From assembly GCA_964560345.1 (NCBI GenBank), contig CAZLLP010000005.1:47071-111070 (forward strand): 64,000 bases of DNA. Direction: 5' to 3'. Shown piece after piece: positions 802 through 63,842 of this stretch. This stretch comes from an uncultured Gemmatimonadaceae bacterium (GTDB taxonomy: Bacteria; Gemmatimonadota; Gemmatimonadetes; Gemmatimonadales; Gemmatimonadaceae). The notes under the pieces were generated by a model. That model saw only the letters and a list, made by a program, of their open reading frames with translations, was not told the DNA's origin and did no database searches. The position numbers and the translations under genes are program-made. Positions within the stretch are counted from its first letter, which is position 1. Every line of letters starts with the position of its first letter.

Positions 802-2166
802 ATGAAGAAGTCCGAAAGCGCGATCCACGTCGTCGGGGGCGGCCTGGCCGGGAGCGAAGCCGCCTGGCAGTTGGCGGAGCGCGGCCACGACGTGGTGCTG
901 CACGAGATGCGGCCGGTGCGCGGGACCGAGGCGCACAAGACCGATCGCCTGGCCGAACTGGTCTGCTCCAACACGTTCAAGAGCACCGAACTGTCCAACG
1001 CGCACGGGCTGCTCAAGGCCGAGATGCGGGCGCTGGGGTCGATCATCCTCGTCGCCGCCGACGAAGCGCGCGTCGCCGCGGGTTCGGCGCTCGCCGTCGA
1101 TCGCGACGTCTTTTCGGCTGGGGTGCACGAGCGGCTGCACGCACACCCGCGCGTGACGGTCGTGCGCGAAGAGGTGACCGCGCTGCCGTCGCCCGGGATC
1201 ATCGCCACCGGGCCGTTGACCTCCGACGCGCTCGCCGAGTCGATCCGTGCGCGCCTGGGAGGCGATGCGCTGGCGTTCTACGATGCGATCGCGCCGATCA
1301 TCGCCATCGACTCGATCGACTTGGGCGTAGCCTTTCGCGCCTCACGCTACGACAAGGAGACGATGGAGGGGGCCGACGAGGCGGGGGCGTACCTCAACTG
1401 CCCGTTCAACCGCGTCGAGTACGAGGCGTTCATCGATGCGTTAGGCGCGGCCGACCAGTTCCACGGGCACGACTTCGACCAGGCGCCCTATTTCGAGGGA
1501 TGCATGCCGGCGGAGGAGATGGTCAAGCGCGGTCGCGACACGCTGCGCTTTGGCCCCATGAAGCCGGTCGGGCTTACCGATCCGCGCACCGGGCGCCGCC
1601 CGTGGGCGGTGTTGCAGCTGCGGCGCGAGGATCGCGCCGGGCAGATGTGGAACATGGTGGGCTTCCAGACCCGCCTCCGCATCCCCGAGCAGCAGCGCGT
1701 CTTTCGCATGGTGCCGGGGCTGGCCGAGGCGGAGTTCCTGCGCTACGGGTCGATCCATCGCAATTCGTACCTCAACACGCCGGCGTCGCTCACGCCGCAC
1801 CTGTCGCTCAAGGACGATCCGCAGGTGCTGTTTGCCGGCCAACTGACGGGAGTCGAGGGATACACCGAGAGCTCCGCCACCGGGTTGATGGCGGGGATCA
1901 ACCTGTCGCGCATGCTGCGCGGCGAGGCGCCGGTGGTCCCGCCGCCGCTCACGATGCTGGGGGCGCTCTATCGCTACCTGCGCGAGGCCGACCCGCGCCA
2001 CTTCCAGCCGATGAACGCCAACTTCGGATTGCTGGAGGAGCTCCCTGATCCGCCGCGCGACAAGCGCCTCAAGAAGGAGCGGCTGTCGGAGCGCGCGTTA
2101 GGCGCGCTGGCGGCGTGGATGGCCGAGGCCGGGATCGGACCGGTGGAGGCGGGACGTGAGCGCTGA
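802..2166 (+). CDS. trmFO: methylenetetrahydrofolate--tRNA-(uracil-5-)-methyltransferase TrmFO (Gid)
   Basis: 454-aa ORF with an N-terminal FAD Rossmann motif (VVGGGLAGSEAAWQLA). Length and the GidA-related pattern (CSNTFK, GQLTGVEGYTESSATGL) match TrmFO. Confidence 0.9.
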   Translation: MKKSESAIHVVGGGLAGSEAAWQLAERGHDVVLHEMRPVRGTEAHKTDRLAELVCSNTFKSTELSNAHGLLKAEMRALGSIILVAADEARVAAGSALAVDRDVFSAGVHERLHAHPRVTVVREEVTALPSPGIIATGPLTSDALAESIRARLGGDALAFYDAIAPIIAIDSIDLGVAFRASRYDKETMEGADEAGAYLNCPFNRVEYEAFIDALGAADQFHGHDFDQAPYFEGCMPAEEMVKRGRDTLRFGPMKPVGLTDPRTGRRPWAVLQLRREDRAGQMWNMVGFQTRLRIPEQQRVFRMVPGLAEAEFLRYGSIHRNSYLNTPASLTPHLSLKDDPQVLFAGQLTGVEGYTESSATGLMAGINLSRMLRGEAPVVPPPLTMLGALYRYLREADPRHFQPMNANFGLLEELPDPPRDKRLKKERLSERALGALAAWMAEAGIGPVEAGRER

Positions 2167-3103
2167 CGAACCAGTACTCACCCCGCGCCCCGTCGAGCTG
2201 AGCGACTTCCTGATCCACCTCGAGAAGGAACGCGACGTATCGCCGCACACCCTCAAGGCGTACGCCCGCGACCTCGACGCCTTCGTCACCTACCTCAGCC
2301 AGCAGCGTGGGATCGAGGCCTTCTCCTGGGACGGCGTCGACCGCCTGACCATGCGCGGGTACCTGGGATATCTCACCCGCAAGGGGCTCAGCAAGCGGTC
2401 GATCGCACGCGCGCTGTCGGCGCTGCGCACCTTTTATCGCTTTCTGCAGCGCGAGGAGATCGTCGACGCCAACCCGGCCCGCGCGGTTGGCTCTCCCAAG
2501 TTGGAGAAGTACCTCCCCGGCTACCTCGATCGCGCGCAGGTCGACCTCCTCTTCCAGGCCGCCGAGGCGCGGGCGTGGGAGGGCGAGTTCCCCGATGTGC
2601 GCAACTTCGCCATCCTCGAGCTGTTCTACTCCACCGGATTGCGGCTGTCGGAGCTGCGCGGCATCAGCACCGGCGACCTCGATCTCGTCTCGCAACAGGT
2701 CAAGGTGCGCGGCAAGGGGCGCAAGGAGCGCATCGTCCCCATTGGCGACCACGCCCAGCGCGCCCTGCGCAACTACGAATCCAAGCGCGACGAGCTGCTG
2801 CGGGTGGTTGGGGCGGGGGCCGACCGGCGCGCCTTCTTCCTCTCGCGCACCGGCAAGCGCATGAGCGCGCGCGGGATCCAGCTCGTGGTGACCAAGTTCC
2901 TCGACCAGGTGGACGAGGATGCGGGACTGTCCACGCACTCGCTCCGCCACACGTTTGCCACCCACCTCCTGGACGCCGGCGCCGACCTGCGCGCCGTCCA
3001 GGAGCTCCTCGGCCACGCCAGCATCTCGACCACGCAGATCTACACCCACACCAGCGTCGAGCGGCTCAAGCAGGTGTACGAGAAGTCCCATCCCCGAGCC
3101 TAA
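2156..3103 (+). CDS. xerC: tyrosine recombinase XerC/XerD family
   Basis: 315 aa with an N-terminal SAM-like core-binding domain. Catalytic signature is present: [38 protein letters not shown] start overlaps the trmFO 3' end by 11 nt. Confidence 0.9.
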
Positions 3104-3107
3104 CGCC

Positions 3108-3693: not shown

Positions 3694-3721
3694 CTCCCGT
3701 CTCCCGTCTCCCGTCTCCCGT
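3694..3721. repeat. 4 x CTCCCGT heptamer array (hslV-hslU spacer)
   Basis: Perfect tandem heptamers at 3694-3721. They are preceded by a GAGAAGACGGA half-arm (3658-3668) and a GC hairpin GCGCGGCC/GGCCGCGC (3674-3692). Confidence 0.8.
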
Positions 3722-3734
3722 CCCTCAGGAAGTC

Positions 3735-5201: not shown

Positions 5202-5252
5202 CCATGCGCGATCGCGCGCGGTCGCGCGCGTCGTGACCGACCGGCGCGAGCG

Positions 5253-7451
5253 TTAGGCGCGCGCGCCGAGCGGGTTGGGGGCGTCGAGCAGCTGGAACAG
5301 GCGCCCGATCGCCTCCTGATCGAGCGGCTTGGCCAGGTAGTCGTCCATCCCGGCACTCACGCAGCGCTCGCGGTCCTGCGCAAAGGCGTTGGCGGTCATC
5401 GCGACGATGCGGGTGCGGCGCCCGCCGGTCGCCTCCATCGCGCGGATCTGCGCGGTCGCCTCGAAGCCGTCCAGCTCTGGCATCATGCAGTCCATCAGGA
5501 TGACGTCGAACGACGCGGCGCGGCACGCCTCCACCGCCTCACGTCCGTTGCGCGCGTGCGTGACGTGATGCCCGGCGCGCTGCAACAGGTGCAACGCGAC
5601 CAGCGCATTCACCTCGTTGTCCTCGACGAGGAGCACTTCGCGCGGCGGCTGCACCAGCGCGGCCGTTGACGGCGTGAGGCTGCGCGCGCGCAGCTCGCGC
5701 CGCTCCTCGCTCACCCCGGCCTGGGCCTCGCGCCAGTCGAGCACCACGACCGGGATGGTGACCCGGAACGTGGTCCCGACGCCGAGCGTGCTCTCCACCT
5801 CGACCTCACCCCCCAGCAGGTGCACCAGTTGCTGCGTGATGGCCAGCCCGAGTCCCGTCCCGCCAAAGCGTCGCGTGGTCGACGTGTCACCCTGCGTGAA
5901 CTTCTCGAACACCTGCCCCAGGTGATCGGCGGCGATCCCGATCCCCGTGTCGGCGACCGTCACCCGCAACGCCGGCGCCTGCAACGTCCCCGCCGGTCCG
6001 AGCGACACGCGCACCGCGCCCACCGTCGTGAACTTGATGGCATTGCCCACCAGGTTGGTCACCACCTGGCGAATCCGGGTCACGTCGTTGTGCACGCGCC
6101 CCGGAATCCCCGCGTCGAGCCGCAAGGAGAGGGTGAGCCCCTTGGCGCGTGCGGACGCCTGGAACATCTCCACCAGCTCCGAGAGGGTCGGCGCTGGCGA
6201 GAAGGGGACCGGCTCCAACTCGATCTTGCCGGCCTCGATCTTGGACAGGTCGAGGATGTCGTTCAGGATCGACATCAGCGACTGCGCCGACGCCAGCGAC
6301 GTCTCGGCAAACTCGCGCTGATCGCGGCCGAGCGGCGTATCGAGCAGGAGGCTGAGCATCCCCATCACCCCGTTCATCGGCGTGCGGATCTCATGGCTCA
6401 TCGTCGCCAGGAAGTCGGACTTGGCGCGGCTCGCCGCCTCGGCGGCATCGCGGGCGCTGCGCAGCTCTTCCTCGGTGCGGCGGCGCCGGATCATCCCCGC
6501 CAGCGTACTCGCCGCGGCGGTGAGGAACTCGTCGTCATGCGCATCGCGCGCGCGGTCGCGCTCGAGGTGCACGACCAGCACGCCAATGGCGACGCCGTCC
6601 GACATCAGCGGGATCGCGTAGAACCCGGTCAACGTCCCGTGCGACTCACCGCACTCGTCAGGCGCCACGTACGGTGCAAACTGCATCGTGCCGCTGGCCA
6701 TCGCTCGGCGGCACCGGCAGGCGCGCTGGTCTTTCATGCTGCACGCGACCGTTCCCGCTCCGGTGTCGCCCGATGCCGCGTCCCCGCGATGCGCCACGCG
6801 TACCAGCGTGTCGTCGGGCGCTTCGCGCAGGTACACCGAAAGGCGTGACGAGGTAGCCAGCAGCGGCGCGGACGCCAGCGTTGCCAGCGCGCGCTGCAGC
6901 ATCTCCGTGAGCGACGCGTCCTCGAGCCCCACCTGCAACAGCGCGGTGAGGACGCGCTGGTTGGCAAAAGCGCGCTCGATGGCTTCGTGCGCGCGACGGC
7001 GGTCACTGATGTCGCTGTGCGACCCCGCCATGCGCACGGGGACGCCGGCGTCGTTGCGCAAGACCATCCCGCGCGCCACCACCCAGCGATACGAGCCGTC
7101 CTTGTGCCGCATGCGGAACTCGGGCTCGTAGACGGCCAGCTTGCCGTCGATCGCCGCTTGCACCTGCGCCAGCGTCCGGTCGATGTCATCCGGGTGAACG
7201 AGTGCCGTCCACGTGGAGAACTCGTTAGGAAGCTCGTCGTCATCAAAACCGCAAATGCGCTTCCACTGCGGTGAGAAGTAGACCGCGTTGGTACGCAGGT
7301 CCCAGTCCCAGATGCCATCGCGCGATCCCTGCACGGCAATCTGCCAGCGATCACGCCAATGCTCGGCGTCGCCCGACGGGTCGGGAACGTGCGACGGGGT
7401 GATCGCCGGAGCGACCGATCCTGCGATCGGTGGCGCGGAGGTATCAGGCAT
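5253..7451 (-). CDS. hybrid sensor histidine kinase (PAS-GAF-HisKA-HATPase-receiver)
   Basis: PAS (IWDWDL..YFSPQW..RHKDGSYRW), a GAF-like region, H-box SHEIRTPMNG, N/G boxes NLVGNAIKFT, DTGIGI, GGTGLGL, and a C-terminal receiver (LLVEDNEVN..DVILMDCMMPELDG..KP). Start taken at ATG 7451 (MPDTSAPP) and is uncertain. Confidence 0.85.
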   Translation of the reverse strand: MPDTSAPPIAGSVAPAITPSHVPDPSGDAEHWRDRWQIAVQGSRDGIWDWDLRTNAVYFSPQWKRICGFDDDELPNEFSTWTALVHPDDIDRTLAQVQAAIDGKLAVYEPEFRMRHKDGSYRWVVARGMVLRNDAGVPVRMAGSHSDISDRRRAHEAIERAFANQRVLTALLQVGLEDASLTEMLQRALATLASAPLLATSSRLSVYLREAPDDTLVRVAHRGDAASGDTGAGTVACSMKDQRACRCRRAMASGTMQFAPYVAPDECGESHGTLTGFYAIPLMSDGVAIGVLVVHLERDRARDAHDDEFLTAAASTLAGMIRRRRTEEELRSARDAAEAASRAKSDFLATMSHEIRTPMNGVMGMLSLLLDTPLGRDQREFAETSLASAQSLMSILNDILDLSKIEAGKIELEPVPFSPAPTLSELVEMFQASARAKGLTLSLRLDAGIPGRVHNDVTRIRQVVTNLVGNAIKFTTVGAVRVSLGPAGTLQAPALRVTVADTGIGIAADHLGQVFEKFTQGDTSTTRRFGGTGLGLAITQQLVHLLGGEVEVESTLGVGTTFRVTIPVVVLDWREAQAGVSEERRELRARSLTPSTAALVQPPREVLLVEDNEVNALVALHLLQRAGHHVTHARNGREAVEACRAASFDVILMDCMMPELDGFEATAQIRAMEATGGRRTRIVAMTANAFAQDRERCVSAGMDDYLAKPLDQEAIGRLFQLLDAPNPLGARA

Positions 7452-7749: not shown

Positions 7750-8661
7750 ATGACGCACCGCGACTTCCTCGCGATTCCAGACTTTTCCTCCGACGAGCTG
7801 CTCTCGCTCTTTGCGCTCGCCGAGTCGATGCGCAGCGGGCGGTATGATAAGAAACCGCTCATCGGGAAGTCGCTGGCGATGATCTTCATGAAATCGTCGA
7901 CGCGCACCCGTGTCTCGTTCGAGGTCGGAACGTGGCAGCTCGGCGGCGCGGCCTGGTTCCTCTCGCCCCGCGACGTGCAAATCGGGCGCGGCGAACCCAT
8001 CGGCGATACCGCCAAGGTCCTGTCGCGGTACGTCGACGGGATCATGATTCGCACCTTCTCGCACCAGGACGTGGAGGCGCTGGCGCACGATGCGTCGATC
8101 CCCGTCATCAACGGGCTCACCGACTACCTGCATCCGTGCCAGGTGTTGGCCGACGTGCTGACGATCCGTCAGCATCTCGGGACGCACGAGGGGCAGGTGG
8201 TGGCGTGGATCGGCGATGGGAACAACATGGCCAACTCGTGGATCAACGCCGCCTATCGCCTCGGCTTTGACCTGCGCCTCGCCTGTCCCGAAGGGTACGA
8301 CCCCGATCCCGCGCTACTGGCGCGGGCGCGCGAGAGCGGGCGCGTCGAACTGGTGCGCGATCCGCGTGAGGCGGTGCGCGGGGCCACGGTCGTCACCACG
8401 GACGTGTGGGCCTCGATGGGACAGGAGGAGGAACAGGCGGCGCGCGAGCGGGCCTTCGCCGGCTTCAGCGTCGACTCGGCGCTCATGTCGCGCGCCGAGC
8501 CTAACGCGATCTTCCTGCACTGCCTCCCGGCGCACCGGGGCGAGGAGGTGGCCGCCGATGTCATCGACGGACCGCAGAGCCGCGTCTGGGACGAAGCCGA
8601 GAACCGCCTGCACATCCAGAAGGCCATCATGGCCGTGCTGATGGGAGGCGAGGCGCTCTAG
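7750..8661 (+). CDS. argF: ornithine carbamoyltransferase
   Basis: ATG at 7750 inside track ORF 7288..8661. Carries the STRTRVSFE carbamoyl-phosphate motif plus HPCQ and HCLPAHRGEE motifs. About 303 aa. Confidence 0.9.
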   Translation: MTHRDFLAIPDFSSDELLSLFALAESMRSGRYDKKPLIGKSLAMIFMKSSTRTRVSFEVGTWQLGGAAWFLSPRDVQIGRGEPIGDTAKVLSRYVDGIMIRTFSHQDVEALAHDASIPVINGLTDYLHPCQVLADVLTIRQHLGTHEGQVVAWIGDGNNMANSWINAAYRLGFDLRLACPEGYDPDPALLARARESGRVELVRDPREAVRGATVVTTDVWASMGQEEEQAARERAFAGFSVDSALMSRAEPNAIFLHCLPAHRGEEVAADVIDGPQSRVWDEAENRLHIQKAIMAVLMGGEAL

Positions 8662-8752
8662 CGGTCTCGCCGGCACCAGCGGCGATAGGTCGCCTTCTGC
8701 CTTGTTCGCGGGCATATTTCACGGGTACGTCCCCTCACCATCCCACCTCGCC

Positions 8753-9865
8753 ATGTCCGACACGAGCCCCACCGCGCTCAAGCGCACCCCATTCCACGCG
8801 ATGCACGCGGCACTCGGCGCCAAGCTCGTCCCGTTTGCCGGGTACGAGATGCCGGTGCAGTATCCCGCCGGGATCACCGTGGAGCACAAGGCGGTGCGCG
8901 AGCACTGCGGGCTCTTCGACGTCTCGCACATGGGCGAGTTCCTGGTGCGCGGGCCGCAGGCGGTCGAGTTCGTGAACTACGTCACGACCAACAACGCCGC
9001 CTCGCTCGTGGTGGGGCAGGTGCAGTACTCGGGGATCCTGAACGAACGCGGGACCTTCGAGGATGACTGCCTCGTCTATCGCGAGGCCGACGGCATCCTG
9101 ATGGTCGTGAACGCGTCCAACAAGGACAAGGACTTCGCCCACATCTCGCAGCAGCTGGCGAAGTTCGATTGCACGCTCACCGACATCAGCGACGATATCG
9201 CGCTGCTGGCGCTGCAGGGGCCCGAGGCAAAGGACGTGCTGCAGCCGCTGACCGACGTCGATCTCTCGACCATCAAGTACTACCATTTCGCGATGGGGAG
9301 CGTCTGCGGCGTGGCCAACGTCTACGTCTCGCGCACCGGCTACACCGGCGAAGACGGCTTCGAGTTGTATTTCGCCCCGGCGCACGCTGCCACCATCTGG
9401 AACGCCCTGCTCGCCGACTCGCGCGTGACGCCGACCGGTCTGGGCTGCCGCGACTCGTTGCGGCTGGAGATGGGGATGGCGCTGTACGGCAACGACATCG
9501 ACGATACCGTCACCCCGCTCGAAGCGAATCTGGGGTGGATCACCAAACTCTCGAAGGGTGACTTTGTCGGGCGCGACGCGCTCGTCAGGCAGAAGGAGGC
9601 GGGGGTGCCGCGCAAGCTCGTCGGCTTCACCTTCGCCGAGCGCGCCATTCCGCGCCACGGCTATCCCGTCTTCTGCAATGGCGAGCCGTCGGGCGTGGTC
9701 TGCAGCGGGACGATGAGCCCCTCGGTCGGCATCCCGATCGGGACGTGCTATCTCCCTACCAAGTCGTCGGCTGAGGGGAGCACCTTCGAGGTCGAGATTC
9801 GCGGCAAGCGCGTGGCGGCGACCGTGGTCAAGCCGCCGTTCTACAAGCACGGCTCGCACCTCTAA
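8753..9865 (+). CDS. gcvT: glycine cleavage system aminomethyltransferase (T protein)
   Basis: ATG at 8753 (MSDTSPTALKRTPFH). GcvT pattern throughout: GYEMPVQY, LFDVSHMGEF, SRTGYTGEDGFE, RDSLRLE. Confidence 0.9.
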   Translation: MSDTSPTALKRTPFHAMHAALGAKLVPFAGYEMPVQYPAGITVEHKAVREHCGLFDVSHMGEFLVRGPQAVEFVNYVTTNNAASLVVGQVQYSGILNERGTFEDDCLVYREADGILMVVNASNKDKDFAHISQQLAKFDCTLTDISDDIALLALQGPEAKDVLQPLTDVDLSTIKYYHFAMGSVCGVANVYVSRTGYTGEDGFELYFAPAHAATIWNALLADSRVTPTGLGCRDSLRLEMGMALYGNDIDDTVTPLEANLGWITKLSKGDFVGRDALVRQKEAGVPRKLVGFTFAERAIPRHGYPVFCNGEPSGVVCSGTMSPSVGIPIGTCYLPTKSSAEGSTFEVEIRGKRVAATVVKPPFYKHGSHL

Positions 9866-9903
9866 GCATTGGCTGCCGCCGCGCTCACGCGTCCGTCCCG
9901 GGC

Positions 9904-10409
9904 ATGCGCATCGCCATCCTGACCATCTCCGACGCCGGTGCGCGCGGCCTGCGTGCCGACGCGTCGGGCGACGCGCTCGTCGCGTGGGCCGAGTCGTGCG
10001 GGGCGACGGTGACCGAGCGACACATCGTCCCCGACGAGAGTGTCGAGATCGTGCGCACCCTCGTGGGGTGGTGCGACGGCGATCGGGCTGACGTCATCCT
10101 CACCACCGGCGGCACCGGGCTGTCGCCACGCGACGTCACCCCCGAGGCCACGCGCGCCGTGATCGAGCGCGAGGCGCCGGGACTCGCCGAACGCCTGCGC
10201 GTGGTGGAGATCGAGCGCTTCCCGCGCGCGGCGCTCTCGCGCGGCATCGCCGGTACCCGGGCGCGCACGTTGGTCATCAACCTGCCGGGGTCGACCAGCG
10301 GCGTGCGTGATGGCGTCGCGGCGCTCGCGCCGGTGCTCGCGCACGCCGTCGCCATCGTGCGCGACGAGGCGACCGACCACTCGCCAGGCGCCATGGGGCG
10401 GGGAGGGGC

Positions 10410-10413
<4 letters not shown>
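9904..10413 (+). CDS. mogA: molybdenum cofactor biosynthesis protein, MogA/MoaB family
   Basis: 169 aa with the MoCF_biosynth fold signature (ILTISD, ILTTGGTGLSPRDVTPEA, PGS). The stop overlaps the next gene's start (ATGA at 10410-10413). Confidence 0.8.
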
Positions 10414-12074
<1,661 letters not shown>

Positions 12075-12269
12075 GGCCCGGTCGGACAGGGTGTGTAGGA
12101 TTTTCCTGTGCAAGGCGGCAGGAACTGTCCTTGATTAAGGAAAACCTCGGTTAGACATTAAGTCCCGCATGCCTCGCCTTGGCGAGGAACGATGGGTTGA
12201 CCGACCACCACTCGGCTGCCGCAAGGGAGCCGGGAGAGCCGACGGGGCGCAGGCGTCCCGCGTTGGAGG

Positions 12270-14858: not shown

Positions 14859-14919
14859 GCTCGCTCCGAGCGCCGAGTCGCTCGCTCCACGCGCGCCTGA
14901 TCTGCCCTAAAGAGTGCGC

Positions 14920-45688: not shown

Positions 45689-45701
45689 GTCGCGCGGCGT
45701 G

Positions 45702-47371: not shown

Positions 47372-47413
47372 CCGCGCAGCGTTAGGCGCCCGGTGCCGCT
47401 CGGCGACGAGCGC

Positions 47414-49124: not shown

Positions 49125-49125
<1 letters not shown>

Positions 49126-52769: not shown

Positions 52770-52797
52770 CGGTGCGCGCCTGACGAAGTCGGGGTGC
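52754..52797. repeat. 22-bp tandem duplication (2 copies plus a degenerate third)
   Basis: GCGCCTGACGAAGTAGCGGTGC (52754-52775) and GCGCCTGACGAAGTCGGGGTGC (52776-52797), followed by GCGCCTAACGCACG... It spans the stop of the lipoprotein gene. Confidence 0.8.
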
Positions 52798-52801
52798 GCG
52801 C

Positions 52802-54717: not shown

Positions 54718-56258
54718 CAGCGCGTCCCTCCCGCCAGGCGCATCCCCGCCAGCTGCACCGCCAGCGTGTCCTGCACGCGCTCGATCTCGCGCGTGGGGAC
54801 CGTAAAGTGGTTGGAGAGGACGCTGAACAGGAGGAGGCGGCCGTCGGCCGTGGTGACGTAGCCGGAGAGCGACCGCACCATGTCGAGCGTCCCGGTCTTG
54901 GCGTGCACGTTGCCTTCTGCGACGGTCCCCTTCATCCGGTTGCGAATGGTGCCGTCGATGCCCGCGATGGGGAGGGCGTCGTAGAAGATCTTGAAGTCGG
55001 GCGACTGCCGCATGGCGTCGAGGACGCGGATGATGGTCTCGGGGGTGATGACGTCATGCCGCGAGAGCCCGCTGCCATCGCGCACGACGAAGCCGTCCGG
55101 GGCCGCCCCCCAGGCGAGCACCTGATCGCGCACCACTCGCGCCCCGCTGTCGGCACTGCCGACGCCGGCCCGCGCCCTGCCTAACGTCCGCAGCAGGATT
55201 TCGCCGATCTGGTTCTGCGACGGCTTCTCGAAGGCGGCGAGCACCTGCGAGAGCGGCGGCGACATCATCGAGAAGAGCGGATAGGTCGAGGCGCCGCGCC
55301 ACATCGACAATCCGCCGTCAATCGCGATCCCGCGCGCGGACAATGCTTCGTGCAGCGCGAGGAGATAGGCGCGCGCCGGGTCGCGGTGCGTGATCTCCAC
55401 CACCGCCGAGTCGCCAGCCGCAATGGTGCCGTCGATGATGACGGTGGCGGCGTCGGTGGAGTCCTGCCGGATGGTGAGCGTCCGCGGGCGCCGCACGTTG
55501 GCGCCGGAGACCGGGAGCGGCGCGACCGTCTGCGCCCACACGCGCACGCGCGGGACCGACTGGGCGGGGGCGGTGCGCGCGGTCGGCACGTCGCCCGCGC
55601 TGGCCCCGCCACGCACGATCACGCGCGAGAAGCCCTCGTTGAAGTACAACTCGTCGACGCCGGCGGAGTAGGCAAAGTCGAGGTCGTCGTACGACCAGCC
55701 GAAGCCTAACGTGGCATCGGGAAAGGCATCCGCCCCTGGAACCAGCGCTCCGGTGACTCGCGTCACGCCGCGCGCCGCGAGCGAATCGGCCATGGCCCGC
55801 AGCGGTGCCATGGCATCCCTGGCCATGTGGTCGCTGATGCTCGGGTCGCCGGTTCCGCTCACCACCAGGTCGCCGCGCAGCTCGTTCCCCACGATGGGGC
55901 CGGTCGCTGCCACCGTGGTGCTGAACCGGAAACCGGTCCCCAGCAGGTGCAAGGCCACCGCCCCGGTGAGGATCTTCTGGTTGGAGGCAGGGATGAAGAG
56001 CTTCCCGGCGTTGTGCGAGACCAGGGTGTCACCGGAGATCGGGTCGACCACGAGGATCCCTAACTGCGCGCTGCGAAACTTGGCATCCGCGACCATCGAG
56101 TCGACGGTGCGCCGGACGGCGGCCACCGCCGGCGAGACCCGTGGCGCCGGTGGTGTGGCGGCGCGACCCGGCGCGCACGCCGCGACGGCGAGCGACCCGG
56201 AGAGGACGGCGGCAAGTGCAGCCGGCGTGACGCGTGGCGATGCGAAGTGACGGAGCAT
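54717..56258 (-). CDS. dacB: D-alanyl-D-alanine carboxypeptidase/endopeptidase (PBP4, peptidase S13)
   Basis: Signal peptide, SxxK as PASNQK, SGN-like and KTG (HAKTGTL) motifs. The stop overlaps the moeA start (ATGA at 54717). Confidence 0.85.
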   Translation of the reverse strand: MLRHFASPRVTPAALAAVLSGSLAVAACAPGRAATPPAPRVSPAVAAVRRTVDSMVADAKFRSAQLGILVVDPISGDTLVSHNAGKLFIPASNQKILTGAVALHLLGTGFRFSTTVAATGPIVGNELRGDLVVSGTGDPSISDHMARDAMAPLRAMADSLAARGVTRVTGALVPGADAFPDATLGFGWSYDDLDFAYSAGVDELYFNEGFSRVIVRGGASAGDVPTARTAPAQSVPRVRVWAQTVAPLPVSGANVRRPRTLTIRQDSTDAATVIIDGTIAAGDSAVVEITHRDPARAYLLALHEALSARGIAIDGGLSMWRGASTYPLFSMMSPPLSQVLAAFEKPSQNQIGEILLRTLGRARAGVGSADSGARVVRDQVLAWGAAPDGFVVRDGSGLSRHDVITPETIIRVLDAMRQSPDFKIFYDALPIAGIDGTIRNRMKGTVAEGNVHAKTGTLDMVRSLSGYVTTADGRLLLFSVLSNHFTVPTREIERVQDTLAVQLAGMRLAGGTR

Positions 56259-56914: not shown

Positions 56915-57556
56915 CTAGGACGAGGTGTCGAACGGCATGGCGAGGGAGCCGGACGCGAGCGACTCGGCGACGCGCTCGGCCTGTGCGCGCTCTTCCGGAG
57001 TATTCACGTTCAGGAACAACACCGAGGGATCGCCAAAGGTCGCAACCTGCTCGGCGCCGAGTCGCGCCACGCGCACCGCATCGAAGAAGGCGATCACGCG
57101 GCGGTCTCCGCGATCGAGCGCCGCCGTGATGGCGTCGAGGCAGGGCGGGGCATACCAGGCGCACATCGGCTCCAGCCCGCGCTTGCTCCCGCTCTCCGGG
57201 AGCGCGGCGTCAACGCCCGATTCGCCTAACGCGCGCAGCCGGGCGAGCAGCGCGGGGCTCACGAACGGCATGTCCCACGCGACAACCAGTGCGGCCCCGC
57301 CGGCGTGCGAGAGCGCGGCGTGCAGTCCGCCGAGGCTCCCTTGGCCCGCGCGGATGTCGCGCGCGACGCGAACGCCCGGGAGCCACTCCGAGGCGCGGTC
57401 GTCGTTGGCGATGAGGAGCAGGTCGTCAGTCACGGCGCGCAGCGCATCGGCCACACGGTCGATGATGCGACGTCCGCCGACCACTTCGAGCCCCTTGGGA
57501 TGCCCGCCGAACCGTGTCGCCCCCCCTCCGGCGAGGATCACTCCCGTGCAGGGCAT
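56915..57556 (-). CDS. mobA: molybdenum cofactor guanylyltransferase MobA
   Basis: ATG at 57556 inside track ORF 56915..58174. Carries ILAGGGATRFGG, the GSLGG and DMPF motifs. Confidence 0.85.
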   Translation of the reverse strand: MPCTGVILAGGGATRFGGHPKGLEVVGGRRIIDRVADALRAVTDDLLLIANDDRASEWLPGVRVARDIRAGQGSLGGLHAALSHAGGAALVVAWDMPFVSPALLARLRALGESGVDAALPESGSKRGLEPMCAWYAPPCLDAITAALDRGDRRVIAFFDAVRVARLGAEQVATFGDPSVLFLNVNTPEERAQAERVAESLASGSLAMPFDTSS

Positions 57557-57561
57557 CGCGC

Positions 57562-58323
57562 CTAACGCCCCGCCGTCGGCAGGTGCAACTGCGGCGCCCC
57601 GCTCACGGCGCGGGCAATGAGGAGCATGTCGGCGGCACGGGCAATCTCCACCGCAATCGTCGACGGCACCGAGGGGGTGGCGACGGCGGCAACCCCAGCG
57701 CGCGCCGCCTTGAACGCCAACTCCCCCGAGATGCGCCCGGTCACGAGCAGGATCAGGTTGGCCGGCGAACGCCCCGCTTGCAGCGCCGCGCCAAGGACCT
57801 TGTCCACCGCATTGTGCCGCCCGATGTCCTCGGCGTGATGAAAGAGCGAGGTGCCGTCGGTGAGCGCGGCGGCGTGAATCCCTCCCGTCTCCTTGTAGCG
57901 CGTGCCGAGGGCGAACAGCTCCTTGAAGACCGCCCGCAACCTGGGCGTGTCGACGTCCGGGACCGTCCCGGTGCGGCGCGGCACGTCGGCGAGGCTGCCC
58001 AGGAAGGCGGTGACAGACCCGCACCCCGAGGCGAGGATGCGCCGCCTCGACTGGCCTTCGACCGCTTGCACGCGCGCCGGGTCGATGTCCACCCAGAACC
58101 CCAACTCCTTCGTGCAGGGGCGCATGCGGGTGATGTCGGCGAGCGACTCGATGTATCCCTCGCCAAAGAGCCACCCGACCACGAGCTCATCGAGCGCATC
58201 CGGCGTACACATCCACGTGACGACCGGCACCCGGTTGAGCTCGAGCCAGACCGGCGACTCCTCGACCGCGTCGAGCGGAGTTGGAGCCGCGGGGGAGCCG
58301 GAAGGAGAGGAGGACTCGCTCAT
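57562..58323 (-). CDS. fdhD: formate dehydrogenase accessory sulfurtransferase FdhD
   Basis: ATG at 58323. The Cys loop SGCGS, the EDIGRHNAVDK motif and a C-terminal SGRISGEL-type region are present. Confidence 0.85.
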   Translation of the reverse strand: MSESSSPSGSPAAPTPLDAVEESPVWLELNRVPVVTWMCTPDALDELVVGWLFGEGYIESLADITRMRPCTKELGFWVDIDPARVQAVEGQSRRRILASGCGSVTAFLGSLADVPRRTGTVPDVDTPRLRAVFKELFALGTRYKETGGIHAAALTDGTSLFHHAEDIGRHNAVDKVLGAALQAGRSPANLILLVTGRISGELAFKAARAGVAAVATPSVPSTIAVEIARAADMLLIARAVSGAPQLHLPTAGR

Positions 58324-58361: not shown

Positions 58362-58817
58362 CTAGATCTCGCCTTCCCGTCTTCCCGTCTTCCCGTCCTC
58401 CCCCCGATAGGCAGACGAGAGCGTCGCGTCCTCCGCCACCCGGACCTCGACGACATCGACCGCGCTGCCTAACGCCGAGCGGAGCTGTCCAAAGATGAGC
58501 CGGGCGATGTTCTCCCCGGTGGGGATCTGCCGTCCCTCGGCGAACTCGGGGATGTCGAGATTGAGGTTGCGATGGTCGTAGCGCTCGCGCACCTCGCGGG
58601 CCAGCACACCGTCGAGCACCCCGAGGTCGACGATGAAACCGGTGAGCTCGTCGATCTCGCCGCCCACGGTCACATCGCAGACGTACGTGTGTCCGTGATA
58701 GTTGGGGCGGGCGCAGAGCCCGAACGTCGCCTCGTTGCGCGCGTCGTCCCACTCCGGGCGGCGGTAGCGGTGCGCCGCGGCGAACGTCACGCGGCGCGTG
58801 AGGTACGCCCGCGCCAC
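58362..58817 (-). CDS. queD: 6-carboxy-5,6,7,8-tetrahydropterin synthase QueD
   Basis: GTG at 58817. PTPS fold motifs are FAAAHRY, NYHGHTY and DHRNLN. The last ~14 residues (GEDGKTGRREGEI) are encoded by an octamer repeat array. Confidence 0.8.
   Translation of the reverse strand: MARAYLTRRVTFAAAHRYRRPEWDDARNEATFGLCARPNYHGHTYVCDVTVGGEIDELTGFIVDLGVLDGVLAREVRERYDHRNLNLDIPEFAEGRQIPTGENIARLIFGQLRSALGSAVDVVEVRVAEDATLSSAYRGEDGKTGRREGEI
58373..58396. repeat. 3 x CTTCCCGT octamer array forming the 3' end of queD (minus strand)
   Basis: Perfect tandem octamers at 58373-58396, followed by a degenerate CCTCCCCC. On the queD sense strand this reads GGGAAGAC repeats. Confidence 0.8.
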
Positions 58818-58818
58818 C

Positions 58819-59514
58819 CTAGCGGCCGAAGGTGTACGTGATCCCGGCGGTGAGGCCGAGGTTGCGCTTCCAGACGTTGCGCCCCGCCGTCGGGTCGAGC
58901 ACCGACGGGTCGGCGGTCGACTTGGTGAAGTACGAGTCGGGGTAGCGGATGCGGTAGAAGTAGTTGGCCGCATCGATGCGCCCCTGCCAGCGGCCCCCCG
59001 GGACGATCTTGATGGCCGGACGGAAGGCGAGCAGGAACGGATAGCCGAACCTGTAACCGCCCACGTCGGGGGAGTCGAAGCCCGCGCCGATCCCGAGCCC
59101 GCCACCTAACGACGGGACGATCCCGTGCCACGACTTGTAGCCCGTGAGGTTGAGCGCGAAACCGATGTCGGTGAGCAGCATCGTCACCGATTCCTTTCCG
59201 AGAAAACGCTCGGTGAGGAGCTTGGTCGGGTCGACCACCTGGCGCTCGGAGAGCACGATCGACGAGTTGGCGGTGAAGTACGCCGGCCCGGTGATGTGGA
59301 ACTCGTAGTGCGCCCCAAAGGTCGGGCCGCTCTGCGGCGCCACCTTGGCGGGGTCCTCCGACGCCTGGTATTGCCCGGCAAAGAAGGTCAGCTCCTGGCG
59401 ACGCGCCAGGTCGCGATACGGCGAGTTGCGCGGCGTGTGTCCCACCTGCGCCTCGGCAATCGCCGGCGCCAGCACGCACAACCCGAGGAGGGCGAACGAT
59501 CGAATCGTCATCAC
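58819..59514 (-). CDS. hypothetical outer-membrane beta-barrel protein
   Basis: Signal peptide (LGLCVLAPAIAEA), alternating hydrophobic beta-strand pattern, aromatic-rich C-terminus ...GITYTFGR. Confidence 0.55.
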   Translation of the reverse strand: MMTIRSFALLGLCVLAPAIAEAQVGHTPRNSPYRDLARRQELTFFAGQYQASEDPAKVAPQSGPTFGAHYEFHITGPAYFTANSSIVLSERQVVDPTKLLTERFLGKESVTMLLTDIGFALNLTGYKSWHGIVPSLGGGLGIGAGFDSPDVGGYRFGYPFLLAFRPAIKIVPGGRWQGRIDAANYFYRIRYPDSYFTKSTADPSVLDPTAGRNVWKRNLGLTAGITYTFGR

Positions 59515-59521: not shown

Positions 59522-61072
59522 TCAGGACTCTTGGGACAGCAGGCGCAGCGAGCGCCCGGTCATTTCAGTCGGTTGGTCGATGCCGAGCATCGAAAGAATC
59601 GTCGGTCCCACGTCGCACAGCGCACCCCCGCCTCGCAGCGGGCGGTCGCCGTCCGGATCGACGACGACGAGCGGGACCGGGTTGGTCGTGTGCGCCGTGT
59701 GCGGGCCACCGGTCTCCGGGTCGATCATCACTTCACAGTTGCCGTGGTCGGCGGTGACCAGGAGTCGCGCCCCCGCCTTCTCCGCTGCCTTGATGACACG
59801 TGCCAGGCATTCGTCCACCGTCTCGAGCGCCTTGATCACCGCCGGGATCGACCCGGTGTGCCCCACCATGTCCGCATTGGCGTAGTTACACAGGGTGAAG
59901 TCGTACGATCCACTCGCAATCGCCTCCACCAGCACGTCGGTTACCCCCGCGGCCGACATCTCGGGCTGCAGGTCGTACGTGGGGACCTTGGGGCTGGCCA
60001 CCAGGTTGCGCACTTCCCCTGCAAACGGCGTCTCGATCCCGCCGTTGAAGAAATAGGTCACGTGCGGGTACTTCTCGGTTTCCGCCGTGCGAAACATCGT
60101 CATCCCCGTCTCCGACACCACCTCGGCGACAATGCGGGCCATCGAGAAGGGGGGGAAGGCGACCGGGAAGGAGAAGGTCTCGTCGTACGACGTCATCGTC
60201 GCCAGGTGCAAGCGCTGCGGGCGTGTGCTGATGTCGAAGCCGCCGAAGTCGGGCTGCGTGAGCGCCCGCACCATCTGCCGCATGCGATCCGAGCGGTAGT
60301 TGAAGCCGATGATCGCGTCGCCGTCGCGGATCGGGGCCACCGGCTCGCCGTATTCCGTCACCACCATCGGGGTGATGAACTCGTCGGTCTCGCCGCGATC
60401 GTAGGCGGCGCGAATGGCGGCCAGCGGATCATCGGTCGACGGTCCGACTCCCATCACGCTGTCGTACCACTTCTTGACCCGCTCCCACCGCTTGTCGCGA
60501 TCCATCCCGAAGTAGCGCCCACCTAACGAGGCGATCTTCGCCCGTCCCCTGGCCGCGGCCAGCGTCTGCTGCATGTAGCCAAAGCCGTTGGTCGGCAGCG
60601 TGTCGCGCCCGTCCATGAGCGCGTGGATCGCGACCTTGGCCACCCCCTGCTGCTCGGCCAGCTCGATGAGCGCGAACAGGTGCGACTGCATGGCGTGCAC
60701 GCCGCCATCGCCCATGAGTCCCAGCAGGTGCAGCGTCCCGCCGTTCCGCTTCACGTGGGCGCAGGCGTCCACAAAGGCCGGCTTGGTGAAGAACGAGCGG
60801 TCGGTGATCGACTCCTCGATGCGCACCAGGTCCTGCTTGACCACCCGCCCGGCGCCCAGGTTGAGGTGCCCCACCTCGCTGTTTCCCATCTGACCGGCGG
60901 GGAGTCCTACCGCGAGCCCCGACGCGTCCAGAAGGGTGCGAGGCGCCTTGGACCAGAGCGCGTTCCAGGTCGGCATCTTTGCCATCGCAACGGCGTTACC
61001 TTCCGCGGCATCGCGATGGCCAAAGCCATCGACGACCACGAGGACCACGGGGCGCGTATTCGGACGGGGCAT
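59522..61072 (-). CDS. gpmI: 2,3-bisphosphoglycerate-independent phosphoglycerate mutase
   Basis: ATG at 61072. Carries VVDGFG, the MGNSEVGHLNLGAGR catalytic Ser motif, and TADHGN. Confidence 0.92.
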   Translation of the reverse strand: MPRPNTRPVVLVVVDGFGHRDAAEGNAVAMAKMPTWNALWSKAPRTLLDASGLAVGLPAGQMGNSEVGHLNLGAGRVVKQDLVRIEESITDRSFFTKPAFVDACAHVKRNGGTLHLLGLMGDGGVHAMQSHLFALIELAEQQGVAKVAIHALMDGRDTLPTNGFGYMQQTLAAARGRAKIASLGGRYFGMDRDKRWERVKKWYDSVMGVGPSTDDPLAAIRAAYDRGETDEFITPMVVTEYGEPVAPIRDGDAIIGFNYRSDRMRQMVRALTQPDFGGFDISTRPQRLHLATMTSYDETFSFPVAFPPFSMARIVAEVVSETGMTMFRTAETEKYPHVTYFFNGGIETPFAGEVRNLVASPKVPTYDLQPEMSAAGVTDVLVEAIASGSYDFTLCNYANADMVGHTGSIPAVIKALETVDECLARVIKAAEKAGARLLVTADHGNCEVMIDPETGGPHTAHTTNPVPLVVVDPDGDRPLRGGGALCDVGPTILSMLGIDQPTEMTGRSLRLLSQES

Positions 61073-61851: not shown

Positions 61852-62705
61852 ACGACGTCCGGCACTTCCTCAAGCACGGCGGCACTCCGGCGCGGGTCCT
61901 GCTCGCCCTCGTCGTCCTTCTCCTGCTCGGTAGCGCCGGGCTGGGGGCCGCGACGGTCACGGCGCGCTACCGCCGCGACCTCACCCGCATGGTCTTCAAC
62001 GACAACCTCGAGGTCCTCGAGGACGTGAAGCGGAAGGTCGGGGTGGTCTCCGACTCGCTGCAGACCATTGTCGAGGCGCCGATCGACTCGATCGCCAGCA
62101 AGGCCTACATCGTCGTCAGCATTGCCGACCGTCGCCTGTGGTATCGCGACGGCGATTCGCTCCTGTTCACCACCCGGGTGGCGACGGGGAGCGGAAAGGT
62201 CCTGGCCAAGGGCGGCGGGAACCAGTGGAAGTTCGAGACCCCGCGCGGGCGCCTGGTCGTCCTGAGCAAGGAGAGCGACCCAGCCTGGGTTCCCCCCGAC
62301 TGGCATTACGTCGAGGTGGCGCACAAGAAGAAGCTGGGGCTCCTCAACCTCAAGCGCACCGACCAAATCCCGCTCCCCGACGGCAGCTTTCTGGCCGTGA
62401 ACGGGAGCAACGTCGTGAAGCGTCTCGCCGACGGCGCGGAGGAGGTGCTGGAGGCCGGGGAGGGGAAGGACCTGATCGTGAACGGGAACGTGATCATCCC
62501 GCCGTTCGGGACCAACCAGCGCCGCTTTCCCGGGGTGGTAGGGACGCACCGCCTCAATCTGGGCGACGGCTACGCCCTGCACGGCACCGACGTCCCCAGC
62601 TCGATCGGGAGCGCCGCGAGCCATGGGTGCGTGCGCTTGCGGAACGAGGATATCGAGACCCTGTTCCGCATCGTGCCGGTCGGGACGCCGGTCTACATTT
62701 ACTGA
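61848..62705 (+). CDS. L,D-transpeptidase (YkuD domain)
   Basis: N-terminal TM helix and a YkuD catalytic motif, LHGTD....IGSAASHGCVRLRNEDIETLF. Confidence 0.85.
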   Translation: MNDVRHFLKHGGTPARVLLALVVLLLLGSAGLGAATVTARYRRDLTRMVFNDNLEVLEDVKRKVGVVSDSLQTIVEAPIDSIASKAYIVVSIADRRLWYRDGDSLLFTTRVATGSGKVLAKGGGNQWKFETPRGRLVVLSKESDPAWVPPDWHYVEVAHKKKLGLLNLKRTDQIPLPDGSFLAVNGSNVVKRLADGAEEVLEAGEGKDLIVNGNVIIPPFGTNQRRFPGVVGTHRLNLGDGYALHGTDVPSSIGSAASHGCVRLRNEDIETLFRIVPVGTPVYIY

Positions 62706-62915
62706 CCCGTCGGTCACAGGTCAGGAACCTTCCGCGGGCGGAAGGGGTCCCAAAGCACGTCGTTTTGACCGATCTTGCTCATGCGCCTGGGAAGTGACAG
62801 CTACCGGGCGTTTCCCCCTCCTCCTCACCGTTCGCCTCCCGGCGTGACGTCGCCCAGTTCGGGGCGTCGATCCGCGGGACCCTCGGCATCCACCGGAAGA
62901 CGGGACATCGCCCAC

Positions 62916-63842
62916 GTGCATTTCTCATCGAAAGGTCTGCGCGCCGCTCTCTGCAGCTTCGCGCTCGTCTCGCTTGCGCCTGTCAGCGCGAGCGCCGTCA
63001 CCCCAATCGATCCGCCCAGAACGGCGGCGATTCGCGTGACGAGCCTGTCCAACGATTCGCTCGGAGGACGCAGCGGGAAGCTCAAGGCCCGCATCGTCTC
63101 GACCAAACGCGATGGGAGCATTCGCATCCTGCGACAGCTCTTTGGCGATTCGGCCTCCCAGCGCCCGGGGATCTACCACGCCGCCGACTCGGCGACGGGC
63201 AAGCGCTTCGCCCTGATCAACCTCCTCCCGTTCCAGGCGCGCGAGCGCGGAAAGCTCGGGGGCTACCGTATCGGTTTCTGGCCGGGTGAACGTCGCGCCA
63301 CGTGGGCCAGCAACAAGGCGCCCGAGGGGTTCATCGAGGTGACCACGGAGAACCAGGACACGCCGCTCTCCGAGCACTTCCGCATCCGCGACTTTCTGAC
63401 CCACGACCAGCAGGCGGTGTGGCCCAAGTATCTCGTGCTGCGCGAGGCGCTGGTCGACAAGCTCGAACTGCTGATCTCGGACCTGCAGACCCGCGGCTAC
63501 CGCGTGGCCAGCATGCCGGTCATGTCGGGTTTCCGCACGCCGCAGTACAACGCGTTAGGCGTGGGGGCCAAGGGGGGGCGGGCCAAGGACTCGCGTCACC
63601 AGTACGGTGACGCCGCCGACATCTTCATCGACAACGATGGCGATGGGCGCATGGACGACCTCAATCGCGATGGGCGCGTGGACACGCGCGACGCCAAGGT
63701 GGTGCTCGAGTCGGTGGAGCGGATCGAGAGCGCGCATCCCGATCTGATCGGGGGCGCGGGACTGTATCGTGCGACGTCGTCGCATGGACCGTTCGTTCAC
63801 GTCGATGTGCGCGGCTCCCGCGCACGCTGGGGGAGGATCTAG
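62916..63842 (+). CDS. peptidase M15A/DUF882-type peptidoglycan peptidase (YcbK/MepK-like)
   Basis: Signal peptide after GTG 62916 (start uncertain; the track ORF begins at 62775). Zn ligand contexts SGFRTPQYN...SRHQYGDAADI and HVDVR, with a D-rich (DNDGDGRMDDLNRDGRVD) insert. Confidence 0.7.
   Translation: MHFSSKGLRAALCSFALVSLAPVSASAVTPIDPPRTAAIRVTSLSNDSLGGRSGKLKARIVSTKRDGSIRILRQLFGDSASQRPGIYHAADSATGKRFALINLLPFQARERGKLGGYRIGFWPGERRATWASNKAPEGFIEVTTENQDTPLSEHFRIRDFLTHDQQAVWPKYLVLREALVDKLELLISDLQTRGYRVASMPVMSGFRTPQYNALGVGAKGGRAKDSRHQYGDAADIFIDNDGDGRMDDLNRDGRVDTRDAKVVLESVERIESAHPDLIGGAGLYRATSSHGPFVHVDVRGSRARWGRI

Follow-up and report, generated by a model that had tools for sequence, protein, structure and literature searches.

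Several kinds of short words are known to be hyper-abundant or over-represented in bacterial genomes. In cyanobacteria, the palindromic octamer HIP1 (GCGATCGC) is tens- to hundreds-fold over-represented, is conserved within and between genes more than neutral evolution would predict and holds the targets of orphan methyltransferases; it has stayed unexplained for 30 years, and its function is debated, with recent work tying it to transformation and horizontal transfer. To our knowledge, uptake sequences have been proven in only two bacterial families, the Neisseriaceae (DNA uptake sequence, DUS) and the Pasteurellaceae (uptake signal sequence, USS). DUS and USS are present in 1,471-1,892 copies per genome (PMC2817400). 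Chi sites are exact words of 5-8 nt that are over-represented in core genomes, lineage-specific, potentially useful to phages and co-oriented with replication, and FtsK orienting polar sequences (KOPS) and other architecture-imparting sequences show strand polarity toward dif. Among integrons, the attC and attI1 sites of class 1 have GTTAGGC as their canonical sequence. The attC core site has the consensus GTTRRRY and its inverse core RYYYAAC (PMC3053210). Here, a stretch of 64,000 nucleotides from an uncultured Gemmatimonadaceae bacterium (contig CAZLLP010000005.1, positions 47,071 to 111,070; hereafter the window) is described, in which the 7-mer CGTTAGG, mostly extended to the 8-mer CGTTAGGC (reverse complement GCCTAACG) and often to the 9-mer GCGTTAGGC, is a real and strongly over-represented signal at the DNA level. 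The word belongs to a known kind, the hyper-abundant genomic words, and is new in its phylum, its asymmetry, its loading of a phage, its presence or absence between clades and its identity with an integron core site. Full-text literature searches gave no description of the word or of uptake sequences in Gemmatimonadota, in agreement with the original prediction, a note made from the window alone, which knew of no described function.

Abundance in the Window

Exact counting on both strands gives 44 copies of CGTTAGG (20 on the plus and 24 on the minus strand), 36 of CGTTAGGC (17 and 19) and 22 of GCGTTAGGC (12 and 10). At the G+C content of the window (0.680), independent bases (Markov order 0) predict 7.01, 2.38 and 0.81 copies, respectively. 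The original prediction had counted by eye, and its coordinates and counts were all exact on recount; its expectations (7, 2.4 and 0.8) and its estimate of about 68% G+C were also reproduced. The enrichment that it claimed stands against stricter controls. Markov orders 1-3 predict 2-5 copies of CGTTAGG, dinucleotide shuffles yield 2.83 +/- 1.52 (maximum 7 in 100 shuffles), and synonymous-codon shuffles of the 47 coding sequences (CDS) leave 1.6-1.8 copies (maximum 6), compared with 32 observed wholly within CDS, which rules out codon usage as the cause. CG precedes 44 of the 48 TTAGG of the window. Among all k-mers, CGTTAGG and GTTAGGC are the strongest outliers at k=7, CGTTAGGC (GCCTAACG) tops k=8 and GCGTTAGGC tops k=9, with the word also among the top outliers at k=10. 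The copies are spread over 23 different genes and their flanks are unrelated, so the word is neither a repeat family nor a product of paralogy, the explanations that had been named as fatal to the claim.

Effects on Coding Sequence

Twenty-two copies lie on the coding strand as xCG-TTA-GGx, encoding Ala/Ser/Thr/Pro-Leu-Gly, and eight are antisense as CCT-AAC-G (Pro-Asn-x), which is the same DNA phase. Six copies provide stop codons, either as GCC-TAA-CG (four) or as CGT-TAG-GC (two), while three lie in other frames and five in spacers or leaders. The word contains 21 of the 26 TTA codons of the window, and it encodes 21 of 55 [ASTP]LG tripeptides (38%) and 8 of 13 PN[AGVED] tripeptides (62%); four of nine TAA and two of 19 TAG stops are supplied by it. 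Saturation of compatible peptides is equal for the sense and antisense placements, indicating a pressure on double-stranded DNA rather than on mRNA or protein. A translation or RNA-level signal, such as TTA-codon regulation, is out, since the antisense placement is saturated to at least the same degree and stops, spacers, a phage and attC sites have copies too. In the clade of the window, the word is almost exclusively in one codon phase, but other clades add the GTT-AGG and CTA-ACG frames. An intrinsic codon-phase rule is thereby rejected, and the bias reflects a lineage-specific coding cost.

The footprint is also visible in the proteomes. PN[AGVED] occurs 0.69 times per 1000 amino acids in motif-positive genomes versus 0.40 in motif-negative genomes (1.7-fold), and the excess is about equal to the number of motif-coded copies. 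In alignments, the amino acids at word sites often differ between carriers and non-carriers: in TrmFO, ALA or ALT is replaced by ALG and EGA by PNE, and in HslU, KLG is replaced by TLG or SLG. Such sites sit at poorly conserved residues. Point substitution has written the word into core genes and megaplasmids of some Gemmatimonadaceae and into one or more of their temperate phages, and it is kept up by purifying selection or drive, the pressure being on the DNA rather than on protein or RNA.

The 44 sites of the window are as follows (window coordinates; "8-mer" stands for CGTTAGGC on the strand given, which reads GCCTAACG on the plus strand when the site is on the minus strand):

1439-1446, plus: CGTTAGGC in trmFO, in frame GCG-TTA-GGC (Ala-Leu-Gly); site common to loci L001, L004 and L009 and to clade A
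2096-2103, plus: CGTTAGGC in the trmFO C-terminus, GCG-TTA-GGC
3098-3105, minus: GCCTAACG in plus-strand reading, gives the TAA stop of xerC (GCC-TAA-CG)
5251-5258, plus: CGTTAGGC, its complement gives the TAA stop of a minus-strand hybrid histidine kinase
7223-7229, plus: 7-mer CGTTAGG (next base A), histidine kinase, antisense CCT-AAC-G (Pro-Asn)
8499-8506, minus: GCCTAACG, carbamoyltransferase gene, antisense phase CCT-AAC-G (Pro-Asn-Ala)
15082-15089, minus: 8-mer, minus-strand AAA_16/Trans_reg_C regulator, GCG-TTA-GGC
16045-16051, minus: 7-mer (next base G), same regulator, GTT-AGG frame (Val-Arg)
16724-16730, minus: 7-mer (next base T), same regulator, TCG-TTA-GGT
21079-21086, minus: 8-mer, atpB, antisense CCT-AAC-G (Pro-Asn-Val)
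21862-21869, plus: 8-mer, atpB-atpE spacer, immediately upstream of atpE
23449-23456, plus: 8-mer, gives the TAG stop of atpH (CGT-TAG-GC)
26587-26594, plus: 8-mer, convergent intergenic spacer, 3 bases past the flavin monooxygenase stop
27257-27264, minus: 8-mer, M20 peptidase gene, GCG-TTA-GGC
28627-28634, plus: 8-mer, MFS transporter gene, ACG-TTA-GGC
28981-28988, plus: 8-mer, MFS transporter gene, GCG-TTA-GGC
29851-29858, plus: 8-mer, GNAT/DinB gene, TCG-TTA-GGC
30303-30310, minus: 8-mer, gives the TAG stop of a minus-strand alpha/beta hydrolase gene
32101-32108, plus: 8-mer, MutS-domain-V gene, GCG-TTA-GGC
33965-33972, plus: 8-mer, S9 peptidase gene, antisense CCT-AAC-G (Pro-Asn-Gly)
34823-34830, plus: 8-mer, S9 peptidase gene, antisense CCT-AAC-G (Pro-Asn-Ala)
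36124-36131, minus: 8-mer, cstA, CCG-TTA-GGC
36844-36851, minus: 8-mer, cstA, GCG-TTA-GGC
39687-39694, minus: 8-mer, gives the TAA stop of an isocitrate/isopropylmalate dehydrogenase gene
40539-40546, minus: 8-mer, gives the TAA stop of a metallophosphoesterase gene
41936-41943, plus: 8-mer, penicillin amidase gene, GCG-TTA-GGC
42387-42394, minus: 8-mer, penicillin amidase gene, antisense CCT-AAC-G (Pro-Asn-Gly)
44206-44213, plus: 8-mer, 5' leader, some 20 nt before the start codon of acyl-CoA dehydrogenase
45282-45288, plus: 7-mer (next base T), acyl-CoA dehydrogenase gene, GCG-TTA-GGT
46258-46265, plus: 8-mer, hypothetical open reading frame (ORF; 45546-46808 frame, an uncertain gene model), GCG-TTA-GGC
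47380-47387, plus: 8-mer, convergent intergenic spacer, past the stop of ORF 47024-47371
47774-47780, plus: 7-mer (next base T), SDR gene, antisense CTA-ACG (Leu-Thr)
49127-49134, minus: 8-mer, start of electron transfer flavoprotein (ETF) alpha, ATG-CCT-AAC-G (Met-Pro-Asn), the word coming right after the start codon; overlap, too, with the stop region of ETF beta, the gene upstream (49125-49134)
52340-52347, minus: 8-mer, hypothetical gene 52269-52769, antisense CCT-AAC-G
52800-52807, minus: 8-mer, intergenic spacer, final unit of a 22-nt tandem repeat
53912-53918, minus: 7-mer (next base G), moeA, TCG-TTA-GGG
55179-55186, minus: 8-mer, S13 D-Ala-D-Ala carboxypeptidase gene, ACG-TTA-GGC
55704-55711, minus: 8-mer, S13 D-Ala-D-Ala carboxypeptidase gene, ACG-TTA-GGC
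57224-57231, minus: 8-mer, MobA-like gene, GCG-TTA-GGC
57560-57567, minus: 8-mer, MobA-like gene, GCG-TTA-GGC
58467-58474, minus: 8-mer, between the mobA-like and the next gene; GTT-AGG frame in an uncertain ORF
59105-59111, minus: 7-mer (next base T), hypothetical gene 58819-59514, TCG-TTA-GGT
60522-60528, minus: 7-mer (next base T), iPGM gene, TCG-TTA-GGT
63553-63560, plus: 8-mer, gene 62775-63842, GCG-TTA-GGC

The genes of the window are of the housekeeping kind, such as trmFO-xerC-hslVU, the ATP synthase operon and genes for ETF, for the synthesis of molybdopterin, for peptidases and for transporters. Scanning the window for Rfam families and tRNAs gave no match. Stop usage across the 47 gene models (TAG 19, TGA 19, TAA 9) is unusual at 68% G+C. 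The longest motif-free gap (8507-15082, 6.6 kb) overlaps a lower-GC stretch (0.575-0.633 at 12-16 kb), as had been pointed out; the gap is real, yet its size alone is not significant. In the lower-GC stretch (12000-16000) lie a hypothetical gene, a gene for an HD-GYP-type protein and the first part of the 1036-aa AAA_16/Trans_reg_C regulator, which itself has three copies of the word although the gap overlaps this stretch. The 22-nt tandem repeat at 52747-52807 (2.8 copies), downstream of gene 52269-52769, has GCCTGACG in units 1-2 and GCCTAACG in the last unit, a one-base difference in a young duplication.

Distribution and Conservation across Relatives

The word was followed through 80 syntenic loci of GTDB species; the HslU of the window matches that of Gemmatimonadaceae metagenome-assembled genomes (MAGs), with a best identity of 93%. 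In about half of these loci the word is the top 7-mer outlier, and it is absent from the remainder; its distribution is restricted to clades. In the motif-positive pool (529 kb), CGTTAGGC is present 250 times versus 6.7 expected, and in the motif-negative pool (580 kb) 3 times versus 5.1 expected. Enrichment is seen in dozens of independent assemblies, one of them a finished PacBio genome, and is therefore not confined to the window, as the check on relatives proposed in the original prediction had asked. In the HslUV tree, the positives fall in at least five clades that are interspersed with negative genomes.

The word sites are common within clades and different between clades. Conservation depends on divergence: at 84-88% pairwise nucleotide identity, 85% of motif 8-mers are intact versus 32% of control 8-mers, at 80-84% identity 67% versus 24%, and at 76-80% identity 30% versus 17%. 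Below 76% identity, motif 8-mers have no conservation excess, and sites turn over with divergence. The word has a strict core, GTTAGG, flanked preferably by C on either side, with first- and last-position variants enriched 4-10-fold. Compared with negative genomes, the transition neighbours CGTCAGGC and CGTTGGGC show an enrichment of about 2-fold, and in an 8-mer tally the one-off halo amounts to about 0.8 variants per perfect copy, mainly at the outer positions.

Two side observations concern related words. In the 13.6-kb locus of MAG SMAG_U10293 (L006), CGTTATG is found 10 times versus 0.7 expected, beside four CGTTAGG, and is possibly a one-base dialect of the word in this single lineage, the sole candidate for one. 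In the pooled loci of clade B, a second word, TAGAGGGT/CTAGAGG, is found 17 times versus 0.5 expected (in L022, L029 and L032).

Orientation and Spacing

Chi- or KOPS-like replication polarity is excluded, as the balanced orientation in the window had already suggested. GC skew is mildly positive nearly throughout the window, and the word is oriented 20:24. In the same syntenic region, the plus orientation makes up 79% in clade A and 33% in clade D, which are opposite majorities. On the replicons of the cultured strain Gemmatirosa kalamazoonensis KBS708, of which plasmids 1 and 2 (605 kb) were analysed, the orientations are 227:197, without a link to the sign of GC skew (Fisher p = 0.29).

Close neighbours are avoided. 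Copies less than 300 bp apart were found 23 times versus 48.7 in simulations, half the random rate, and the copies of the window keep a distance of 336 bp or more from each other. Inverted pairs at close range (<300 bp) are depleted 2-3-fold in G. kalamazoonensis (6 vs 18.2 and 9 vs 18.3), but close direct pairs are not (33 vs 36.3).

The Integron of Gemmatirosa kalamazoonensis

KBS708 plasmids 1 and 2 contain 404 copies of CGTTAGGC versus 7.1 expected, with a coding pattern like that of the window: 143 of 185 TTA codons, 22 of 41 TAA stops and 12 of 75 TAG stops are inside the word. In addition, at 810-855 kb of plasmid 1 the word is found with conserved flanks in a regular array of about 45 kb. 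The array units are about 97 nt long and read GCCTAACG-...GTTCAGCTGC...-variable-...CAGCTGCAACGATT-CGTTAGGC. Their predicted fold has an R stem, an unpaired spacer, a bulged L stem and a variable tip (z-scores -3 to -4), and between them are bodies of 260-800 bp, whose ORFs have their TAA stop inside GCCTAACG. An integron integrase (TIGR02249, 422.8 bits vs a cutoff of 265) lies about 1.8 kb from the array. Together they make up a large chromosomal-type integron in which both R boxes of every attC are CGTTAGGC. The original prediction had missed this connection: the motif corresponds to the attC/attI core site of integrons, and the integron of a motif-positive relative uses the identical 8-mer. 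GTTAGGC fits GTTRRRY and GCCTAAC fits RYYYAAC; a random 8-mer contains GTTRRRY with a chance of 0.39% and GTTAGGC with a chance of 0.024%. Of 10 unrelated integron loci from metagenomes that have perfect R''/R' pairs, 9 likewise have GTTAGGC as their R' word. Apart from the attC sites, the cassette bodies are nearly free of the word, with 4 copies in 44.9 kb.

The region 810-858 kb (L232:10200-50000 and L236:1-7810) holds a complete large integron that is unannotated in the accessible record, with intI (856,827-857,810) co-oriented with the cassettes and separated from the array by a 235-aa ORF. Several cassettes are duplicated, and two solitary attC-like ends are found at L236:29351 and 31822. 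The region is probably the "collapsed 53-kb tandem repeat" of the genome paper (PMC3974934).

The copies of the window share with attC and attI core sites the identical GTTAGGC and the stop codons within GCC-TAA-C, as in gene cassettes. They are not attC sites, because each copy stands alone, 336 bp or more from the next, and has no L boxes; their flanks are unrelated, and they have no hairpin partner and lie inside conserved housekeeping genes. An attC hairpin is an imperfect palindrome of 57-141 bp (R''-L''...L'-R'), which only the KBS708 array fits, and the abundance of the word, extrapolated from measured density to thousands per genome, also differs from that of attC. No intI was found in the window, where the only recombinase is the XerC-type enzyme of the trmFO-xerC-hslVU operon. 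To the pattern of secondary (attG-like) IntI sites, GWT/GTTRRRY, the word conforms by sequence match only.

Phages

The 45.6-kb contig IMGVR_UViG_3300025917_000032 (L207/L208) has 27 copies of the word in the 31.9 kb read, in both orientations and in host-like coding frames. Its predicted genes (integrase, methyltransferase, replication protein, RusA, small and large terminase, portal, protease/capsid and tail) identify it as a bona fide temperate phage, which is as word-rich as its host. In this phage, GTTAGGC is commoner than CGTTAGG, the 5' C being less strict. The comparison with acquired DNA that had been proposed thus gave a divided answer, with cassette bodies poor and the temperate phage rich in the word. 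The pressure has acted on chromosome-like replicons and a resident phage, and mobile cassettes have escaped it.

A second phage contig, IMGVR_UViG_3300048590_000316 (L194/L202), has an early region (L202:13100-19000) with two DNA methyltransferases and a Lar-like protein, in which seven same-strand copies of an intergenic repeat, GCCTAACG-N5-6-TAACCGGCC, also written GCCTAACG-N5-6-(T)AACCGGCC, are found, several at stop codons. The 13-kb structural module has no copies. The word copies of L194/L202 belong to this longer intergenic repeat, which is probably a regulatory repeat of the phage and separate from the phenomenon in the host.

Possible Functions of the Word

The reading adopted here, tentatively and at less than even confidence, is that the word is a DNA-uptake or self-recognition tag of the DUS/USS type that would accumulate by drive. 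Such a tag would mark own-kind DNA independently of orientation and would be bound by a sequence-specific protein during the acquisition of exogenous DNA. Alleles with the word would be preferentially taken up and recombined, resulting in a molecular drive, with or without selection, that would raise the word to about one copy per fragment-sized interval. We infer all three elements, that is, uptake, the reader protein and drive, from the pattern described above. The tag is ranked first because it is the only known mechanism that gives the density, the spacing, the halo and the proteome footprint without polarity. The density of 0.6-0.7 per kb (mean spacing about 1.5 kb) is similar to that of DUS/USS. 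Like them, the word is short and exact, lies mostly in genes and in both orientations, at a density of roughly 0.6-1 per kb, has a reading-frame bias, inflates the encoded peptides at poorly conserved residues, is surrounded by a one-off halo, avoids close pairs, is scarce in mobile cassette DNA and is restricted to clades. The tag may also be tuned to, or common with, the ends of integron cassettes, so that transformation would be coupled to cassette capture. Chromosomal integrons recruit cassettes from transformation-acquired DNA (PMC12614218); as transformation feeds these integrons, an uptake specificity matching cassette ends is conceivable.

Several observations speak against an uptake tag. 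No competence genes or receptor were found among the genes of the 64-kb window, and no member of the Gemmatimonadota is known to be naturally competent. In species with DUS/USS, genes without homologues in relatives lack uptake sequences (PMC2817400), but here the word is present at full density in a temperate phage, unlike the DUS/USS pattern. No alternative hyper-abundant word was found in the motif-negative clades, so that related clades differ by presence or absence instead of by dialects. The inverted-pair terminators common for DUS/USS are missing from the window, and in G. kalamazoonensis inverted pairs are depleted. The phylum is another one, and the identity with the integron core, given the low chance values above, is unpredicted by a plain uptake model. 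The likeness to DUS/USS and HIP1 drawn in the original prediction is in part borne out, for density, in-gene location, proteome effects and site conservation, and the loading of the phage is unlike DUS/USS.

A doubtful alternative to the uptake tag would make the word a double-stranded box, dispersed over the genome, at which the integron integrase or a related tyrosine recombinase binds or recombines DNA. The copies would be attI/attG-like "R boxes" serving cassette insertion or capture, RecA-independent allelic exchange or titration of the recombinase. This would account for the fit of GTTAGGC and GCCTAAC to the core and inverse core, for the CGTTAGGC R boxes of the array beside intI on KBS708 plasmid 1, for GTTAGGC as R' in metagenomic integrons and for the many genes that end in GCC-TAA-CG like cassette ORFs. 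The depletion of inverted but not direct close pairs also fits, since IntI1 causes off-target inversions between inverted GTTRRRY-like secondary sites (PMC10127599). However, there is no known force that would accumulate and conserve thousands of exact boxes in essential genes, where insertion or recombination would do harm, and genomic insertion by IntI needs only GWT (bioRxiv 2022.09.11.507474). Moreover, the closest metagenomic IntI relatives (at most 65% identity) are on GC-rich, motif-poor contigs, and among motif-positive genomes an integron is documented on G. kalamazoonensis plasmid 1.

It is rather unlikely, though of some consequence, that the genome-wide word and the integron form one functional system, in which the genome, the megaplasmids and the resident phages would be tagged with the integrase box. 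DNA uptake, the integrase or both would then work on thousands of sites in the chromosome, with possible roles in the selective import of cassette-type DNA, in RecA-independent exchange at allelic boxes and in the making of new gene cassettes from ordinary genes ending in GCC-TAA-CG. If true, this would offer a concrete way into the origin of integron gene cassettes, a problem still unsolved. We know of no genome-wide enrichment of an integron core site, and no report of one turned up in the literature, where no search was aimed directly at it.

A Chi-like signal for a RecBCD/AddAB-type helicase-nuclease, which would protect and recombine linear DNA inside the cell, is unlikely. Both orientations would be used because two-ended breaks dominate in slow-growing soil bacteria. 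Like Chi, the word is exact, being an 8-mer that tolerates change only weakly and at its ends; it is lineage-specific and conserved in core genes, and in each orientation it reaches about 1 copy per 3 kb, within the known range for Chi. The word-rich phage is expected of an intracellular signal on any replicon, and the near absence of the word from mobile cassettes is also in favour. On the other hand, known Chi is strongly skewed with replication and a few-fold enriched, whereas the word is neutral in orientation, is 37-57-fold enriched and replaces amino acids, far beyond any known Chi, and its match to the integron core site would stay unexplained. KOPS differ from the word in the same way, by their polarity.

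Still less probable is a functionless by-product, either of a neutral mutation or repair bias of the very-short-patch kind or of a HIP1-like word linked to a methyltransferase. Such a process would hit every replicon, phage included, and HIP1 is likewise a conserved 8-mer with 15-300-fold over-representation (PMC5861425). Under-representation of CGCTAGGC in motif-positive genomes (7 vs 17.6 expected) also points this way, but it is equally depleted in motif-negative genomes (6 vs 13.7 expected), and no other neighbour word is depleted. Very-short-patch-like repair is therefore rejected, as none of the neighbour words shows a depletion peculiar to motif-positive genomes. Neither the 37-57-fold enrichment of an 8-mer nor non-synonymous changes can come from a repair bias at a single position, and the word, unlike HIP1, is asymmetric. 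The original prediction had also proposed looking for modification at the motif. The SMRT (single-molecule real-time) methylome of KBS708 lists only RGATCY, ATGCAC and CCAGN7TCA (PMC3974934), so the word is not a target of N6-methyladenine or N4-methylcytosine methylation, the method being blind to 5-methylcytosine. That the excess is a trivial effect of codon usage, a repeated element, paralogy or an assembly artefact has a negligible probability in view of the codon shuffles (1.6-1.8 vs 32), the unrelated flanks in 23 genes and the dozens of assemblies.

Whatever its function, a hyper-abundant word of independent standing, the third of its kind, would offer a fresh test of how selection or drive at the DNA level reshapes proteomes. 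Its host phylum is dominant in soil and poorly studied, and the word is so strong that it rewrites amino acids and supplies most TTA codons. The system is tractable, as the cultured KBS708 has both the word and an integron with the same 8-mer in its attC boxes. The identity with the integron core, if causal, would link natural transformation, integrase specificity and possibly the genesis of cassettes. In practice, the word is a sharp lineage marker that can help in binning, in recognising DNA of recent acquisition and in linking phages to these hosts.

Other Repeats of the Window

The window also contains intergenic elements made of 7-8-nt tandem repeats, (GAAGACGG/GAAGACGA)n or (GAGACGG)n, which had no Rfam match in the window scan. 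They lie between genes, for example between gene 1 and trmFO and between atpB and atpE. Shorter arrays are found at 3694-3722, 37745-37775, 52230-52261 and 58373-58402. The two long elements (678-790 and 21613-21723) are palindromes of about 110 nt, in which the repeats form the arms and the loops, GAGTCC(C)GGCGCCC.AGGGTCGGTAT, are conserved. AGACGGGA is present 23 times versus 1.7 expected.

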